From: Candidatus Sulfomarinibacteraceae bacterium
Lineage (GTDB): Bacteria > Acidobacteriota > Thermoanaerobaculia > Thermoanaerobaculales > Sulfomarinibacteraceae
Length of the DNA: 64,000 nt
Direction of reading: 5' to 3'
Assembly: GCA_963796455.1 (NCBI GenBank)
Contig: CAWCLO010000004.1
Coordinates: 960,001 to 1,024,000 of the forward strand
Part shown: positions 2,874-40,892 of the stretch, piece after piece
Layout: the number at the start of each line of letters is the position of its first letter
Position numbering within the stretch: position 1 is the first letter of the stretch
Notes under the pieces: model-generated
Told to the model about the DNA's origin: nothing
Databases searched by the model: none
The model's input: the letters and a program-made list of their open reading frames with translations, nothing else
Position numbers and translations under genes: made by a program

Positions 2874-4139
2874 GTGACTCCAAAGATCCTGCCAGGACCG
2901 AAGACCGAACTTCGCGGTTCGGTAAAACTTCCGCCATCGAAGAGCCTGACCAACCGCGCGCTGATTGCCGCCGCCGTCGCGGACGGCGGTATCATCACAT
3001 CGCCGCTGGATTGCGACGACACAAGGGTTCTTGTTGCTGCGCTCTCCGCTGCCGGTTGGTCGATCGATTGGAGCGATACCATCGAGGTCGGGGGACGCAC
3101 GGTCCCAGAGGGTCAAGTGCATCTCGACCTCGGCGACTCCGGAACCGGCGCGCGTCTGATCCTCGGTCTGCTGGCTGCGAGCCCCGGACGGTTCATCGTC
3201 GATGGCAGTGCGCGATTACGGCAACGGCCGATGGCTCCGGTGATAGATACGCTGCAGCGCCTGGGTGCCCAGCTCAGTTCAACTGACGGCAAATTGCCCA
3301 TCGAAATCGACGGCGTTGAACTCGATGGCGGCGGAGCCACCGTGAAACCGGAGGTCTCGTCGCAGTTTGTGAGCTCCCTGGTGCTGGCTGCGCCGCTGAT
3401 GAAAAGAGGTCTTGATCTCCAGGTCGTGGGTGATCTGCCCTCGGCGCCATATCTGGATCTGACCGAAGAAGTCCTGACCGCATTTGGTGGCGGTGTCATC
3501 GTCGACAATGATCGACGGTGGTGGCGAGTCGCTCCCGGTCCCCTTCGTCTCGCACTCTATGATGTGGAGGGAGACTGGTCTGCTGCCTCCTTCGCCCTGG
3601 CTGCTGCGGCGGTGGCGGGTGGGCAGGTGGAAATGGGGCCCCTCGAGCCTGCCAGTCGTCAAGGTGATCGTGGGATCCTCGAGATTCTCTCGCGAGCGGG
3701 GCTCGAGTTCGAGTGGCGCGAAAGATATGTCGCGGCGCGCGGACCCATCACTTCGCCAATCAAGGCCGACCTCCGCGACATGCCGGACCTCTTCCCGGCG
3801 TTGATGGTAGTCGCCGCCTGCGCGCCACCGGGATCGCGTCTCTCGGGTCTTGAAAACCTGCAACACAAAGAGAGTGACAGACTGACCGTCATGGTCCGAA
3901 ACCTCGGCAGGCTTGGGGCGGGAATCACGGTTCGGGAAACCGAAATTGAGGTCCATACCTGCATCCGACCGACCCCTGGGCCGTCGCCAAAGGTTACCGC
4001 CGCCGGAGATCACCGGGTGGCCATGGCCATGGCGGTTGCCGCCCTCGCCGTAGGTCCCCTTGAAATCGACGATGCGGATTGTGTCAGCAAATCCTTCCCG
4101 GGTTTCTGGCAAACGTGGGATGGTCTGGTGGGCGCTTGA
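2874..4139 (+). CDS. aroA: 3-phosphoshikimate 1-carboxyvinyltransferase (EPSP synthase)
   Basis: PPSKSLTNRAL, GDSGTGAR, SSQFVSSL, KESDRL, DHRVAMA, CVSKSFPGF. Confidence 0.95.
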   Translation: MTPKILPGPKTELRGSVKLPPSKSLTNRALIAAAVADGGIITSPLDCDDTRVLVAALSAAGWSIDWSDTIEVGGRTVPEGQVHLDLGDSGTGARLILGLLAASPGRFIVDGSARLRQRPMAPVIDTLQRLGAQLSSTDGKLPIEIDGVELDGGGATVKPEVSSQFVSSLVLAAPLMKRGLDLQVVGDLPSAPYLDLTEEVLTAFGGGVIVDNDRRWWRVAPGPLRLALYDVEGDWSAASFALAAAAVAGGQVEMGPLEPASRQGDRGILEILSRAGLEFEWRERYVAARGPITSPIKADLRDMPDLFPALMVVAACAPPGSRLSGLENLQHKESDRLTVMVRNLGRLGAGITVRETEIEVHTCIRPTPGPSPKVTAAGDHRVAMAMAVAALAVGPLEIDDADCVSKSFPGFWQTWDGLVGA

Positions 4140-4252: not shown

Positions 4253-7200
4253 ATGAGATTCCCGACCCCGGCGGCATTGCTTATCGAACATCCAGCGGTG
4301 CCGGTTCCGGGGATCGAGGCCCACGCGACGGAATCCGAACCTGTCGGCGAAGTGGTCGACCGGAAAACCCTGACCCGTAGCGATCGATATCAACTGGCCG
4401 CGCAACTGACGGCGGCCGTTTCATTGCTGGCGGAATTCGATCTTTGGCCCGGACGGACCGCCATCAAGTCTGCGCGGATATGGCGATCATCGGATGGAAT
4501 CGGCACAACCTTGTCCCGTTTCCCCGTGCCGTTATCGCAGGTCTTCACCCGTCTCGGCAGCGGCCAGACCGCGGCCGAGACGACCCGGCGGGCTGTCATG
4601 GAGGCCGTCTCCTGCGCGGTGGGCCTGCCGATTTCTGCGATCGACGTGGATCGCGATGAACCCGGTTTTTTTCTGGAAGGGGCGATTGTTCGGCAGCTTC
4701 GCGAGTTGCCGACGCCCCTCGACCGGGTAACGGCCCGAAGTCTGTGGGCTCTTCGCTGGGATGGTCTGCCCGCGCCCGAGCCCGGCGTCGCGAGTTACTG
4801 GCACGTATCCGATGAGGACCTGGCCCGCAGGTATGCGTCCGCCCTGTGGGCCACCCTCGGCCGCAAGGGGAGGGAAGCCTGGATGTGGCCGGCCGGGAGA
4901 GAGGATTTGGGAACGGCTCCGTCTCCGGCTCTCGGAGGCAAAGGTGTATTGATCGTCGTTGGATCCATCTCATCGGACGAATTGGCCGCGATTTCGAGAT
5001 GGGCGCAACGTCCCGGATGCTCCGCCGTGGCGGTCGGTTCATTTCCTCGAGGTTGGTACCCACCCGAACCGCCGGGAATCGACGACGGGTCCTTGTCCCG
5101 CCACCTGGCGGTCACGGGCACCACCCCGGACCGGTCGCGCAAGGTCATCGATCAACGGGCCGGTCGTTTCGATCCCTTGGATCGCCGGGATCGCGAGGCG
5201 CTGACGCGCTTGGCGAGATATCGGTTCAAGGATCCGCCGCTGATTGAAATCGGTGCCCGCGCCCGTTCGGCCGCCGAGCGGCTGGAAGAGATGCTCCACC
5301 TGGTGCCGGAAGGGCTGCCGCCGGGATTCGTTGCGGTCCACAGCGGTTTATCCGCGGGTGAGATCGATGACGCCCTGAAAGACCTCGCGGTGATCGAGAC
5401 CCTGGACCGGTGGCGGCTGCCGGATGTCCGGCCTCTCGAACCCGGTGCCGCCCATCTCGAGATCGCCGGTCTCTTCGAATCAGGCGATCCGCGGCGCCGT
5501 CTTCACAGCGCTCTGGGGAGCGGCGATGCAACAGAACTCGTCAAATGGTCGCGTCGCCAGCTCGATGTTTTGGATGGACGATCGGTTCGCGACCTTTTGG
5601 CGCCGGTTGCCCCCGGTTGTCTGGGGCCGGTTGTCCAGTCCCTCATGGCGGAAGCGTGTCTCTCGATCCTCGATCTCACTGGCGCACGAGCGGCGATCGG
5701 GATCATGAACGGGCCGCGGAGACGTGTGCTTGAGCGTTGGTTTGCATGTCTTGATGAAGCCCCATCATCTCATCACGAGATGCCCTCGGACGAGGAGCTG
5801 GAGATCGAGCCGAGGGTCGCCGCCGAGGTTGCGATCAGGGTACTCGCTCAGTCCGTTCATGGACGGGGAGGCGACCTGAAGGCGGTGCGGAATTGCATCG
5901 ATGGTCTGCTGCCCCGTTTGTCGGAGGCTCTCCGCGGCAGGATCGAAATCGAGCGTACATTCATCGACGATCCGGCTCGATTCAAGGACCGGGAGTGGCG
6001 CCGCCGGGTCGCGGCCGGACATCCGGTGCTGCGGGCACTGGTTATCCATCGTTTCGCATACCTTCTGGCGGACGCGGAGCCACACAAGGCCCGTCGGTTG
6101 TTTCGAAATCTGCGGGGCGATGAAATCGGACCGGGTCTTTCCGCCGTTCTGGAGCTGGATATCGGGATGACAGAAATCGTGGGCGGCGAATCCAGAATCG
6201 CGGAGGTCCATCAACTGAGGGCCTATCGTCTCCTTCAGGCGGCCGGCTTCCAGCATGCCACCAGGGCTGTTCTTTTCAATCTCGCTGTGACCGATCTCGA
6301 TCAGCTCAGGGTCGGGCGGGCGTCGGACCGATTGTCAGCGCTGGCCGAGGACGAGCCGGAGAGCCCGTATCTGCTTGGTGAAATGTGCCGGCTGGCATTG
6401 GCGCTCGGCGATGAGTCGGAGTTTCGCCGGAGCTTGTCGTTAATGACCGCTGATGTTTCGGCTGACCTGCCTCCGTTTGCCGAGGGTGTGGCCTTTCTGC
6501 GCGGGGTCTCTTTGCTCCTCGACGGGGATCTTGCTTCGGCTCGTCGCGAACTCGCGCGTGGCGGTCAAGAGGGAGGGGTGTGGCTCGAACTGGTCCACGG
6601 TCTGTCCGGAAGGGTTGCAGAACCCCAAACCACCGATGGTTGGGGCGTGACTCTTGCCGCTGCATGGTTGGGGCGGGGCCTTCCCTCGTTTGAAAAAACG
6701 ACGATGTCCGACCAGGAAGGCTTCGCGCTTGCGCTGGTTGATCGATTGGCGGGCACAACGATGGAGATCGAGCCCACCGCGCGGGCGCTTGCCGTCAGGG
6801 TATTGGATTCGCTCGGTATTCACGGCTGGGCGGAACAACTCCGCGGCAGTTTTGGTGGCAGCGTGGTACCGGCGCTTGCAAAGATCGTCGAGAGGGGGTC
6901 CTTTGAGGGCATCGGCGAGGACAATCTGGCCGGCCTCCTCCAGGCTCTCGGGCTCACGGGTCTCGAAATCATTGACACCCGTGAGGGTCGACAGATTTGG
7001 AGGATCGGTACGGGCGCGGCGGGAAGCGAGGTCCGTCACGGCCGAATCTCCCTGGTCCCCCTCGGCGGAGAGGCGTCGGGTGAACCGGCCTGGATTCTGG
7101 TCAAAACCCTGTTTGAGCTCTTTGCGCCGCCTTCGGTGGATCACCAGGATCCTTCGGTCGAAAAGACGGGTTTTGTCGGGTCCTCACCCCCTGCCGTACT

Positions 7201-8092
7201 GGTGCGCCGGCAACTTCTCGAACTCGGGCCGAGCCATCTGCCGATTCTCATCCTTGGTGAAACTGGAGTCGGCAAAGAGGTTGCCGCGAAAGCTCTGCAT
7301 CGATTGTCCGGGCGGGATGGCGCACTGGTCGCGGTCGATATGAACGCCATCCCGGCGAATCTCCTCGAAGCCGAACTCTTTGGTTCCCTCAAAGGGGCGT
7401 TTACCGGGGCCGATCGTGCGCGACGCGGACTGGTGATGGCAGCTGACGGCGGAACCCTTTTCCTCGACGAAATCGGCGATCTCGACCCACTGCTGCAGGT
7501 CAAGCTTCTGCGCTTTCTCGAGTCCAAGGAGGTCCGGCCGGTGGGTTCAGATCATGCAACGAAGGTGGATGTTCGGATCGTCGCCGCCACCCATCGTGAT
7601 CTGAAGCAGAGGATTCGGGAAAACGTCTTCCGGAGTGATCTTTTTTATCGACTCGCCATCACCGAGATCAAGATCCCACCTTTGCGCGAACGCCATACGG
7701 ACATTCCTGCACTGACGGAACACTTTGAGAGCTTGGCTGTCGCGCGTCATGGGCTTTTGTCGGCGCGATGGAGCGCGGAGGCGATGAAATTGCTGCAACG
7801 ATACCGCTGGCCCGGCAACGTTCGCGAGTTCCGCCAAACCATCGAGGTTGCACTCGTGCGGGCGGCCGGCGGGCCCGTGCGCGCGGAACACCTTCCGATA
7901 GAAAACTTCGAAGAAATGGAATCGAAACCCTGGGACGTTGCCCAACGGGAGTTCAGAGCCCGTTTTCTCGAAGCCGCGCTCCGCCGCAACAACGGCAACC
8001 GCAGCGCGACCGCGCGCGAACTGGGAATCTCGCGGCAAGCCCTGCTCTATCATCTGAGAAACCTGGGCCTCACACATATCCTTAAAAACTGA
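4253..8092 (+). CDS. Very large (1279 aa) sigma-54-dependent enhancer-binding protein with long uncharacterised N-terminal region
   Basis: C-terminal GETGVGKE Walker A, EAELFG..KGAFTGA, LFLDEIG Walker B, WPGNVRE and Fis-type HTH (NRSATARELGISRQALLYHL). Confidence 0.92.
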   Translation: MRFPTPAALLIEHPAVPVPGIEAHATESEPVGEVVDRKTLTRSDRYQLAAQLTAAVSLLAEFDLWPGRTAIKSARIWRSSDGIGTTLSRFPVPLSQVFTRLGSGQTAAETTRRAVMEAVSCAVGLPISAIDVDRDEPGFFLEGAIVRQLRELPTPLDRVTARSLWALRWDGLPAPEPGVASYWHVSDEDLARRYASALWATLGRKGREAWMWPAGREDLGTAPSPALGGKGVLIVVGSISSDELAAISRWAQRPGCSAVAVGSFPRGWYPPEPPGIDDGSLSRHLAVTGTTPDRSRKVIDQRAGRFDPLDRRDREALTRLARYRFKDPPLIEIGARARSAAERLEEMLHLVPEGLPPGFVAVHSGLSAGEIDDALKDLAVIETLDRWRLPDVRPLEPGAAHLEIAGLFESGDPRRRLHSALGSGDATELVKWSRRQLDVLDGRSVRDLLAPVAPGCLGPVVQSLMAEACLSILDLTGARAAIGIMNGPRRRVLERWFACLDEAPSSHHEMPSDEELEIEPRVAAEVAIRVLAQSVHGRGGDLKAVRNCIDGLLPRLSEALRGRIEIERTFIDDPARFKDREWRRRVAAGHPVLRALVIHRFAYLLADAEPHKARRLFRNLRGDEIGPGLSAVLELDIGMTEIVGGESRIAEVHQLRAYRLLQAAGFQHATRAVLFNLAVTDLDQLRVGRASDRLSALAEDEPESPYLLGEMCRLALALGDESEFRRSLSLMTADVSADLPPFAEGVAFLRGVSLLLDGDLASARRELARGGQEGGVWLELVHGLSGRVAEPQTTDGWGVTLAAAWLGRGLPSFEKTTMSDQEGFALALVDRLAGTTMEIEPTARALAVRVLDSLGIHGWAEQLRGSFGGSVVPALAKIVERGSFEGIGEDNLAGLLQALGLTGLEIIDTREGRQIWRIGTGAAGSEVRHGRISLVPLGGEASGEPAWILVKTLFELFAPPSVDHQDPSVEKTGFVGSSPPAVLVRRQLLELGPSHLPILILGETGVGKEVAAKALHRLSGRDGALVAVDMNAIPANLLEAELFGSLKGAFTGADRARRGLVMAADGGTLFLDEIGDLDPLLQVKLLRFLESKEVRPVGSDHATKVDVRIVAATHRDLKQRIRENVFRSDLFYRLAITEIKIPPLRERHTDIPALTEHFESLAVARHGLLSARWSAEAMKLLQRYRWPGNVREFRQTIEVALVRAAGGPVRAEHLPIENFEEMESKPWDVAQREFRARFLEAALRRNNGNRSATARELGISRQALLYHLRNLGLTHILKN

Positions 8093-8127: not shown

Positions 8128-8153
8128 AAAAAAGAGCGGGCCGTCAGGCCCGC
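8128..8153 (-). terminator. Intrinsic terminator of the candidate sRNA (possibly bidirectional)
   Basis: Minus strand GCGGGCC-TGAC-GGCCCGC followed by TCTTTTTT. Confidence 0.8.
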
Positions 8154-8206
8154 AGGAGGAAGGAGGAGGTATGATGTCGTGTACCAGGTCGTTGTGTGCC
8201 CGGCAC
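8128..8206 (-). ncRNA. Candidate sigma-54-dependent small RNA with anti-SD (CCUCCU) tract
   Basis: Minus strand: perfect sigma-54 promoter at 8232-8217, then GUGCCGGGCAC...AUCAUACCUCCUCCUUCCUCCU, a GC hairpin and UCUUUUUU. Confidence 0.7.
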
Positions 8207-9191
8207 TCAGTTTATAAGCAAACGGTGTGCCAGAAATCCGGAAGTCGGTGGTTTTTTGGTTCAGATCGGATCTACGCTCCTCAAACAACACCTTCGGAGT
8301 CTCCGCGAAGACGGAGAACCGGAGGTCCACGAGCGTGTGGACCTGCGAGCCTGGACCGCCTTGGGCGTTGGTGGTCTGGCCGACCTTTTGATCCGATGTC
8401 GTAGTGCTGACGGGCTTCAGCGGGCGATCGACCTGCTCGCCGCGCACGGCCAGCGTTGGTTGGTTCTCGGCGCCGGAAGCCGTCTGGTACCACCGCCTGA
8501 GGGTTTGCGGGTGCCGATCGTGAATCTGAGCGGAAATCTCGCCCTCTGGGAGCTTGACCTCGATGGTGCGGTGGCTGGAGGGGGTGCCAACCTGGCACAG
8601 GTGTCCCGTGCTGCGACACGGACCGGTTTGCCCAGCTTGGCCGGGTTGATGAAGACGGGCGATTCGGTGGGTGGTGTGATCCATGCCGCCGGGAGCGGAA
8701 GATTCTCCCTCGCGGGTCTGCTCGATTGGGTTGATCTCGCGCGACCTGGCGCGCCTGCAGAAAGGCTGCTGATCAGGGACCGGGGGATCTCGTTGAGCGA
8801 TCATGAGCTCGATCTCGACCGCCGGGTCGTGATCCGGGCCCGCCTCCAGCTTGCGGCTGACAACCAGGCCACGGCACCTCAAGACCTTGCTTCCGCGGCC
8901 GGCCAACGTCTGCCGCGGCAGCCGCGGTCCACCGCGCCTGCATTTGTCGCGGCGAAGGGGAAAAGCATCGAAAACGTGCTCTCCGACGCCGAGTGCACCG
9001 GGATGACTGCCGGTGGGGCTCGTTTGTCGAAGCGGTTTCCAAATCGGATCTGTACTTCGAGGGCCTCGCGTTCCACCGACGTCGCGGCGCTGACGCGAAA
9101 GGTGATTCAGGCGGTCACGGAACGAACCGGCGAGGCGATCACCTCGGCCCTGTGTTTCGTTGATGACGAGGGTCGGGAAATCGATCCGTGA
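8196..9191 (+). CDS. Divergent MurB-like FAD-binding protein (true start probably downstream of 8196)
   Basis: N-terminal T.LGVGG.AD, VLGAGS.L and SVGG motifs resemble MurB; C-terminal catalytic motifs are degenerate. Confidence 0.65.
   Translation: MPGTQFISKRCARNPEVGGFLVQIGSTLLKQHLRSLREDGEPEVHERVDLRAWTALGVGGLADLLIRCRSADGLQRAIDLLAAHGQRWLVLGAGSRLVPPPEGLRVPIVNLSGNLALWELDLDGAVAGGGANLAQVSRAATRTGLPSLAGLMKTGDSVGGVIHAAGSGRFSLAGLLDWVDLARPGAPAERLLIRDRGISLSDHELDLDRRVVIRARLQLAADNQATAPQDLASAAGQRLPRQPRSTAPAFVAAKGKSIENVLSDAECTGMTAGGARLSKRFPNRICTSRASRSTDVAALTRKVIQAVTERTGEAITSALCFVDDEGREIDP
8217..8233 (-). promoter_or_regulatory. Sigma-54 (-24/-12) promoter
   Basis: Minus strand CTGGCAC-ACCGT-TTGCT, an exact match to TGGCAC-N5-TTGCW. 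Confidence 0.85.
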
Positions 9192-10447: not shown

Positions 10448-10466
10448 GAATTGGGCAGAGGAGAGG

Positions 10467-10530
10467 GAGCAGAGGAGCAGAGGAGCAGAGGAGCAGAGGA
10501 GCAGAGGAGCAGAGGAGCAGAGGAGCAGAG
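10467..10530. repeat. Tandem octamer (GAGCAGAG)x8
   Basis: Eight exact copies, flanked by the inverted pair GGGCAGAG (10453-60) / CTCTGCCC (10535-42). Confidence 0.95.
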
Positions 10531-22638: not shown

Positions 22639-22923
22639 ATGACTATGACCAAGGCGGATCTCGTAGAAACGGTCGCTGAAGCAGCCGACGTGCCGCGCAA
22701 GCAAGCGGATGAAGTCGTACAGGTGATACTCGAGAGCATCATCACGGCTCTGAGGCGCAACGAGAAGGTCGAACTCCGGGGATTCGGTTCGTTCCGGATC
22801 CGGCAGCGTGGCGAGCGCACCGGGCGCAACCCCAAGACCGGTGAGCAGGTGCATGTTCCGCCAAAGAAGATCCCCTATTTCAAACCAGGCAAACACCTCA
22901 GAGAAGAGCTGCTGCAGCAGTGA
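22639..22923 (+). CDS. HU/IHF-beta family DNA-binding protein
   Basis: MTKADLVE, VELRGFGSF, GRNPKTGE, PYFKPGK; directly after rpsA, the usual ihfB position. Confidence 0.93.
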   Translation: MTMTKADLVETVAEAADVPRKQADEVVQVILESIITALRRNEKVELRGFGSFRIRQRGERTGRNPKTGEQVHVPPKKIPYFKPGKHLREELLQQ

Positions 22924-39371: not shown

Positions 39372-40892
39372 ATGGCACTGGAACAAAAGCTTAGATTGAA
39401 GCTGGCCCAGCGGCTGGTGATGACGCCGTCGCTCCAGCAGGCGATCAAGCTCCTTCAGCTCTCCCGCATCGAGCTCGAGGAAACACTCGCCGAGGAGATC
39501 CTTGAAAATCCAGTACTGGATGTGGAAGAGCCGGAAGCCGAACAGAGCTCCGCCGAGGCAGCTTCCGAGTCCGACGACGAGACTGGAAACGATGATGCTT
39601 CCCCCGGAGAGGAACTGAAGTCCGAGGCAAAGAGCGAGGACGACGCTTTGCCGTCGGAAGAGGAGACCTATGCCGACATCGATGTCGAGGCCTTCTTTGC
39701 CGACTACCTCGGAGACGGCCGTTCCGAGGGCCCGTCGATGGCGGCGCCGGCCCTGGATCAGGAAAATCGTCTCGAGAACATGGTTTCGGTTTCGGCCGGG
39801 CTCAACGACCACCTTTTGTGGCAGCTGCACTTGATGGATTGTCCCGAGGAGATCCTCGAGGCCTGCGAGTTCATCATCGGAAACCTCGACGAGGACGGGT
39901 TTCTGCGCGCCACCCCGGTCGAGATCCGAACCGGCACCGACTGCACCGAGAGTGGGGTGACTGCAGCCCTGGCGACAGTGCGATCTCTCGATCCGCCCGG
40001 TATCGCCGCATCCAATCTTCAGGAATGTTTCGCCGCCCAGATCGAGGCGATGATCATGGAGGCCGCGGGCAACGGCGATGGGGCTATTCTGCAAACCGTT
40101 GCATTCGTGATCGCCGAACATTGGGACGATCTGCTGCATCAACGCTGGGAGAAGCTTGCGGAAAGTCTTGGATACTCCGAATTGGTCGAGATCAAACCGG
40201 TTCTCGACATTATTCAGAGTTTGGAAATGAAACCCGGTCGGGCTTTTCGTCAGGACGACAACCAGTACATCGAACCCGATGTCTATGTTCGATTGATCGA
40301 TGGTGAATACAGCATCACGCTGAATGATGATGGCTTGCCCCGTCTTCGCATCAATTCCCGTTATGCCCGAATGCTTGAAGGAAAACAACTCGACGCAAAG
40401 GCCAATGAATACCTGCGCGACAAGATGCGATCGGCGATGTGGTTGATGAAGAGCATCGACCAGCGGCAGAGGACCATCTTCAAAGTTGCCAACAGCATCG
40501 TCAGTTTTCAGAAAGAATTTCTCGAGAACGGCATCGAACATCTGCGCCCGATGGTCCTGCGACAGGTTGCCGAGGACATCGGGATGCACGAATCGACCAT
40601 CTCGAGAGTCGTGAGCAACAAATATATGTACACCCCGCGGGGTCTTTTCCCGATGAAGTACTTCTTCCACTCGGGTGTCGACTCGGCACGGGGAGAAAAC
40701 GTTTCGTCGATGGTGGTCAAGGAGCGGATTCGCAAGGTGATCGAGGCTGAAGACCCGGAGCGGCCGCTGTCGGATTCGAAGATCATGCGCACCCTGCAAA
40801 AAGAAGGAATTCGCCTCGCCCGTCGAACCGTTGCCAAGTATCGTGAAGAAATGATGATTCCTTCGTCCGACAAACGAAAGAAAGTGTTCTGA
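39372..40892 (+). CDS. rpoN: RNA polymerase sigma-54 factor
   Basis: LVMTPSLQQAIKLLQL, MHESTISRV, RpoN box ARRTVAKYRE. Confidence 0.98.
   Translation: MALEQKLRLKLAQRLVMTPSLQQAIKLLQLSRIELEETLAEEILENPVLDVEEPEAEQSSAEAASESDDETGNDDASPGEELKSEAKSEDDALPSEEETYADIDVEAFFADYLGDGRSEGPSMAAPALDQENRLENMVSVSAGLNDHLLWQLHLMDCPEEILEACEFIIGNLDEDGFLRATPVEIRTGTDCTESGVTAALATVRSLDPPGIAASNLQECFAAQIEAMIMEAAGNGDGAILQTVAFVIAEHWDDLLHQRWEKLAESLGYSELVEIKPVLDIIQSLEMKPGRAFRQDDNQYIEPDVYVRLIDGEYSITLNDDGLPRLRINSRYARMLEGKQLDAKANEYLRDKMRSAMWLMKSIDQRQRTIFKVANSIVSFQKEFLENGIEHLRPMVLRQVAEDIGMHESTISRVVSNKYMYTPRGLFPMKYFFHSGVDSARGENVSSMVVKERIRKVIEAEDPERPLSDSKIMRTLQKEGIRLARRTVAKYREEMMIPSSDKRKKVF

Follow-up and report, generated by a model that had tools for sequence, protein, structure and literature searches.

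A conserved small RNA behind a sigma-54 promoter in Thermoanaerobaculales, its neighbouring giant activator gene and a predicted IHF/HU-family target

The window (the whole 64,000-nucleotide stretch of DNA that was analysed) carries on its minus strand a small RNA gene which comparison with related sequences confirms as real, conserved and non-coding, promoted by sigma-54 and bounded by a terminator, and which represents an apparently undescribed small RNA (sRNA) family of the Thermoanaerobaculales. Our reading of the system as a whole, to which we assign a probability of about 0.6, is that this sigma-54 RNA, likely activated by the product of the neighbouring gene, would repress translation at extended, purine-rich ribosome-binding sites, with the site of an IHF/HU-family gene most likely among them. 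The features of the locus are collected in Table 1.

Table 1. Features of the RNA locus, with coordinates given as positions in the window
Feature	Position	Strand	Remarks
1279-aa sigma-54 activator	4253..8092	plus	AAA+ 976-1224, HTH 1237-1269
Small RNA gene, predicted ~79 nt (5' stem-loop, single-stranded CU linker, terminator)	8128..8206	minus	
Intrinsic terminator, 7-bp GC stem and U run	8128..8153	minus	GC hairpin 8153-8136
Seed ACCUCCUCCUUC	8159..8170	minus	in unpaired linker; complementary to GAAGGAGGAGGU
77-aa antisense ORF behind AGGAGG	8171..8404	plus	judged not a gene
5' stem-loop SL1	8181..8206	minus	structure kept, sequence variable
Sigma-54 promoter (-24/-12), TGGCAC-N5-TTGCT	8217..8232	minus	exact sequence match
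Degenerate murB-like gene	8256..9191	plus	divergent from RNA; start uncertain: 8196, 8256 or 8337
Second block of frozen synonymous sites	8397..8412	no strand	genus g1 only (20 loci)
Candidate enhancer palindrome GTGCCA-N3-TGGCAC	8584..8598	no strand	~365 bp upstream of promoter, in murB-like coding region

The RNA gene and its distribution

The minus-strand promoter, the CU tract, the 7-bp GC hairpin and the U run that an initial annotation of this DNA had described are all present as it gave them. The TGGCAC-N5-TTGCT box occurs once in the 64-kb window, where 0.04 would be expected by chance, and 20 exact copies are found genome-wide; from the -12 GC at 8219-8218 the +1 is placed near 8206. 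The resulting 79-nt unit has a predicted folding energy of -28.7 kcal/mol (z -4.2), equalled by none of 200 shuffled sequences, and is made up, from its 5' end, of a stem (8206-8181), a linker of 27 unpaired nucleotides (8154-8180) and the terminator, the seed within the linker having a computed unpaired probability of 0.99-1.0. The tiny 5' hairpin GUGCCGGGCAC of the initial annotation is replaced in the predicted fold by a 9-pair stem, GUGCCGGG(C)...(G)ACCUGGUAC, the core pairs of which covary.

Conservation of this architecture is seen in an alignment of 58 distinct sequences, fitted to the proposed structure, in which 12 of 14 pairs have changed on both sides (7/8 in SL1 and 5/6 of the modelled pairs in the terminator) and 90% of alignment cells are paired, against 32-43% in slid controls; RNAalifold gives the same two stems. 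The seed is invariant in a second alignment, A2, of 51 sequences, and one change is found in genus g3.

All 22 of the genus-level activator orthologues that were fetched (own genome included) are followed by the RNA. A search of 185,579 species genomes with a pattern for the RNA body, which left out the sigma-54 box, found 51 loci; most record titles read Thermoanaerobaculia or unclassified Acidobacteriota, and four carry a different label. A sigma-54 box lies 61-71 nt before the seed in 50 of these and the 51st ends at a contig edge, and a convergent activator gene is present within 3 kb in 46, the remaining five being four short contigs and one true separation. When model R1 was run over 149 genomes of the class, with a strong match defined as E below 1e-4, strong matches were obtained in 18/19 genomes of family 1 and 14/16 of family 2, which are the two families of the Thermoanaerobaculales. 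The exceptions within the order are G046, which matches the sibling RNA described below only, G039, with a weak match, and G040, with none; the 114 other class genomes gave no strong match and five weak ones, one of the five being the unpublished G044, which contributes to this and the other class tallies as a count alone. Metagenomes yielded 114 distinct matches, of which 34 came without a terminator or linked gene and were counted as non-members, except for a few that are truncated, and a viral scan gave a single match, without a terminator.

The RNA has no match in Rfam: Rfam 15 (4227 families) at E up to 10 gave two chance matches, none of them on the RNA, a search of six related loci at gathering thresholds gave no matches, and two loci of the sibling RNA gave none either. 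As judged from listings, the literature yielded no paper on this RNA or on the activator. The original proposal is supported as regards a sigma-54-promoted, non-coding RNA gene with an exposed anti-Shine-Dalgarno (anti-SD) tract, linked to a giant activator.

Predicted targets and a sibling RNA

Target prediction covered 4090 start regions of this genome, the gene starts being taken from a simple custom caller. The best partner of the linker (rank 1/4090) is an 89-aa IHF/HU-family gene, G000:C1:519616-519885, with the site GGGGAAGGAGGAG before its AUG; the same gene ranks 2/4090 for the sibling RNA and 17 for the 12-nt seed alone. Its orthologues were taken from the best 30 family-1 loci, from 20/30 family-2 genomes and from 20/107 outgroup genomes, the latter two sets being hand-picked across genera and families. 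Among distinct start regions, and with the limit that related genomes in the comparison are not independent, pairing with the seed at -15 kcal/mol or better is found in 24/27 from family 1, 17/19 from family 2 and 0/20 from the outgroup, against a background of 172/4090 start regions in this genome. The extended site is in this way kept in 41/46 start regions within the RNA-bearing order and 0/20 outside it, an absence in the outgroup that may reflect short leaders; many outgroup ihf genes have a -10-like box near the start. As control genes, ssb and acyl-carrier-protein orthologues contain GAAGG.GG in 0/19 and 0/23 cases, respectively, and two g3 genomes with an altered seed lack the extended site, which counts as one event.

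From this pairing and its conservation we put the chance that the IHF/HU-family mRNA is a real target at about even. Its product best matches IHF beta, at 86.6 bits against a cut-off of 115, with HU lower; none of the cut-offs for IHF alpha, IHF beta and HU is reached, and the protein is perhaps not an IHF subunit at all. In genus g1 a short GC hairpin in the ihf leader (L144:4595-4612) lies over the first bases of the predicted site. A second IHF-family gene, at 22639-22923 (+), has purine-rich sites ahead of its start in many relatives, with GAAGG.GG in 7/31 start regions, and is a possible second target. The serC and rpsA genes, which had been put forward as targets, rank 624 and 565 of 4090 and were rejected as special targets; the start of the activator itself ranks 1263 and that of rpoN 3241. 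A nuoD-like gene had the look of a target in this genome, but its site overlaps the end of the upstream coding region, varies among 20 orthologues and is uninformative. The genome-wide count of GAAGGNGGAG before start codons is only modestly above control and was not used.

That the RNA acts in trans, probably aided by Hfq, at the start regions of mRNAs is the part of the reading in which we would place good confidence. The features of an Hfq-dependent sRNA are present, namely an unpaired seed, a U-tailed terminator and Hfq in the genome, where two Hfq-family matches were found. On a rival reading the RNA might damp translation broadly at many strong SD sites, or mimic the 16S tail, and have no special target, the ihf site then being simply a strong ribosome-binding site. 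The seed does resemble the 16S tail of this genome, GAUCACCUCCUUUCU, and pairs broadly (132/4090 start regions at -25 kcal/mol or better, compared with 15 coding windows); pairing of start regions with the RNA correlates with their pairing to 16S (r = 0.61), and covariation between RNA and target was not found, cognate combinations having no advantage over non-cognate combinations (permutation p 0.11, 0.55). Nevertheless, the IHF/HU site favours the seed over the 16S tail as a pairing partner by 3.5-4 kcal/mol, and its GAAGG block is kept amid variable flanks and is missing from neighbouring genes. Extended SD sites occur in all of the class genomes searched (100/100), so that this is no lineage-wide shift. 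We regard general damping or 16S mimicry as unlikely.

The sibling RNA, at G000:C1:~497909-498014 in this genome, was found through weak R1 matches; its seed core, CUCCUCCUUC, is followed by a terminator. Model R2, built from 11 sibling copies, identifies it in this genome and in 19/19 family-1 genomes (20 loci), and it was sought in family 2 and not found. An aroD/E or acyl-CoA dehydrogenase gene adjoins 15 of the 20 loci, and a strict AAC-N16-19-CGT promoter pattern is likewise present in 15/20. AAC and CGT boxes are a mark of ECF promoters (PMC8103513), and the sibling promoter is predicted to be of ECF type; this genome has 26 matches to the sigma region-4 family. One predicted fold of the sibling, with a guessed start position, pairs part of the seed with its own 5' end.

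Other elements were observed alongside these searches. A different structured element stands behind a sigma-54-like box at L372:601-720 (also in L307, L345 and L363), within which CAACCUCCUCCUUCC could pair with the 5' GGAGGUUG; in L372 it precedes a gene that by eye is purF-like, and the element has no match in Rfam. In G054, a genome of another family, L123:1030-1112 lies directly 3' of an RNase E/G gene and combines CAUCCAACCUCC with a sigma-54-like box and a terminator; it is a possible short, distant relative. Outside the order, other CU-rich tracts precede hairpins in L163 (G106), L131 (G043) and L336/L364, and may be further anti-SD RNAs.

The giant activator and a candidate enhancer

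The activator gene ends at 8092, tail-to-tail with the RNA terminator. Its product has an AAA+ domain of the sigma-54 type and a Fis-type HTH (Pfam), and among the relatives the activator consensus shows the GAFTGA loop and the Walker motifs, the HTH being conserved as well. The N-terminal ~960 aa have no Pfam match at threshold, with sub-threshold TPR matches, and align with 75 representatives made up of full-length proteins of ~1200-1340 aa and fragments, none bringing a named domain; Pfam scans of 11 proteins found no receiver domain. A STAND/MalT-like sensor is defined by NTPase, winged-helix and TPR domains, and Atlas matches of the N-terminus to such proteins reach only 0.81-0.84 (below 0.9); Pfam, a PDB sequence search and Atlas give only weak TPR/STAND-like leads. 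With the family-1 activator as query, matches were found in 17/19 family-1, 1/16 family-2 and 0/114 other genomes, and with the family-2 activator in 4/5 family-2 and 0/5 outgroup genomes. The gene for sigma-54 itself, rpoN, is in the window at 39405-40880 (+), 31 kb from the RNA. Upstream of the activator lies aroA (2874-4139), and aroD/E follows the sibling RNA (L134:8054-9559), a proximity to shikimate-pathway genes that is perhaps due to chance.

The murB-like gene on the other side of the RNA reaches 45.6 bits where the cut-off is 144.5 and has its SAGSVF motif replaced, a full-scoring murB being present elsewhere in the genome. This family-1 copy is degenerate yet kept, and the family-2 copy at the same place retains SAGSVF. 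A short tandem repeat, read as SRGAEEQR repeats in translation, was noted farther along at 10450-10530, after a TPR gene.

Within the murB-like coding region the pattern G.G.CA...TG.C.C is found in 43/44 family-1 loci and 0/128 control windows, counts which are not a blind test as the motif was discovered in the same loci. Over 42 family-1 loci the third base is frozen in 4/76 conserved multi-codon columns, and all four positions fall in GTG(C/T)CA-N3-TGGCAC, the central three bases of which take eight forms that alter the encoded residues between constant arms. At locus L106, which is without murB, the palindrome is found at -124 in non-coding DNA. It is also present in 32/35 further metagenome loci of family-1 type with enough flank, a set that partly overlaps the genomes, and in this genome it has one copy and precedes 1/32 sigma-54 promoters. 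In family 2 the exact pattern occurs in 2/27 loci, the others having looser variants, and the recognition helix of the activator is alike in both families; ATGCCA-N3-AGGCAC and GGGACA-N3-TGTCCC are candidates for the family-2 enhancer. We consider it probable that GTG(C/T)CA-N3-TGGCAC is bound by the activator, which would reach the promoter by looping, and the palindrome would be a clear case of a regulatory site maintained within coding sequence. The second block of frozen synonymous sites is not frozen family-wide and is a possible second protein-binding site. Two other interpretations were set aside, that of the palindrome as a sigma-54 promoter, neither half-site having a correctly spaced -12 box, and that of TGTC-N10-GACA as a general enhancer, the exact site being in 4/68 loci.

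Synteny, co-distribution and the candidate enhancer lend indirect support to the neighbouring giant activator as the likely switch for the RNA. The RNA could be real and the palindrome be used by another activator, or by a repressor, with the giant activator a mere neighbour: this genome encodes at least 16 sigma-54 activators that could drive the promoter, three g7 genomes and G029 hold both RNA and activator but apart, the half-site of the palindrome is identical to the sigma-54 -24 box, and the exact palindrome is rare in family 2. We give this only a small chance, in view of the tail-to-tail linkage in most loci of both families, the matching distributions of RNA and activator, the single copy of the palindrome in this genome and the lack of a -12 box at either half-site.

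Action in cis or as a decoy, whether as antisense to read-through from the activator gene into murB or as a sponge for a pyrimidine-binding protein or purine-rich RNA, is very improbable; the RNA is indeed antisense between two plus-strand genes, between which no plus-strand terminator was found, but its seed stays unchanged at loci where the neighbouring genes differ and is shared with the sibling at another locus, and CsrA was not found in this genome (90.5% complete). That the real gene is the plus-strand 77-aa ORF, the CU tract being merely the reverse of its ribosome-binding site, is scarcely credible, for although AGGAGG with ATG ATG is maintained genus-wide, the ORF is of very uneven length across 21 complete genus loci (14 to 339 aa), some of which show a 2-nt frameshift, shrinks to 8-16 aa or has no ATG in family 2, has no Pfam match and runs opposite to the promoter, stems and terminator.

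Proposed circuit and comparison with known systems

In the mechanism that we propose, a signal would release the activator, which would bind the palindrome and open the sigma-54 promoter. The RNA, probably together with Hfq, would then pair over the SD and start of a few mRNAs with long purine-rich sites, and the IHF/HU-family gene would be among those repressed in translation in this way. The ECF-driven sibling would bring a second signal to bear on these targets. With less IHF in the cell, sigma-54 promoters that depend on it would be damped, perhaps that of the RNA itself among them. In the fullest version, which spans the order, a giant one-component activator would respond to an enhancer concealed in the degenerate murB copy, the sRNA would silence IHF, and the sibling, with the same seed under an ECF stress sigma, would converge with it, throttling the whole class of sigma-54 promoters by RNA feedback; this is offered as a tentative picture that probably does not hold in all its parts.

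Several consequences would follow from these assignments. An orphan sRNA is now provided with its promoter and with candidates for its enhancer and target site, and the RNA would be an output of the 1280-aa activators, a family so far uncharacterised. Should the IHF/HU gene prove to be the target, this would be sRNA feedback on an architectural protein needed by sigma-54 promoters such as that of glmY; no case of an sRNA repressing IHF was found in the literature, as judged from listings.

The locus has the features of an activator-linked sRNA module, with a -24/-12 promoter at the correct distance and a neighbour carrying GAFTGA, AAA+ and HTH. This layout of activator plus sRNA is of a known kind, represented by Pxr, by GlmY, which works as a protein decoy, and by Qrr.

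Pxr of Myxococcus xanthus is an sRNA adjoining a sigma-54 activator gene, PxrR (Nla19), and has a predicted sigma-54 promoter (PMC5568312, PMC5684412), all of which is like the arrangement seen here. Pxr is processed and has three stem-loops, unlike the two stems and unpaired linker seed of the present RNA, and PxrR, which has a partner kinase, is a response regulator of the NtrC type, unlike the 1279-aa activator, in which no receiver domain was found. The GlmY/GlmZ system with GlrR has palindromic upstream sites, a promoter that requires IHF and RNAs that are homologous yet served by different sigma factors (PMC3045617). In the Enterobacteriaceae GlmY/GlrR likewise combine a sigma-54 sRNA beside the activator gene with an upstream palindrome; unlike here, the GlrR site is TGTC-N10-GACA, found exactly in just 4/68 of our loci, and Rfam gives no match. 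The Qrr1-5/LuxO system of Vibrio, where the sibling sRNAs that a sigma-54 activator switches on act as repressors of translation (10.1101/2021.07.01.450815), differs in that there is no sequence match and in that the sibling here has an ECF-type rather than a sigma-54 promoter.

For the seed the closest parallels lie elsewhere. NfeR1 of the alphaproteobacteria is an RNA with a C/U anti-SD seed and feeds back on ntrBC (PMC10746234), and the Cuckoo RNAs have 2-4 hairpins whose loops contain CCUCCUCCC (PMC4615179). The present RNA is like Cuckoo, alpha-r14 and NfeR1 in its C/U anti-SD seed, which in those RNAs blocks start regions, and unlike Cuckoo and alpha-r14 in that a single ACCUCCUCCUUC (CCUCCUCCUUC) is held in the single-stranded linker between two stems. 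It thus resembles Pxr, GlmY and Qrr in layout and NfeR1 and Cuckoo in seed, and on its sequence and predicted structure appears to belong to none of these families. Its novelty is that of an apparently undescribed sRNA in a known type of module, with new predicted wiring.
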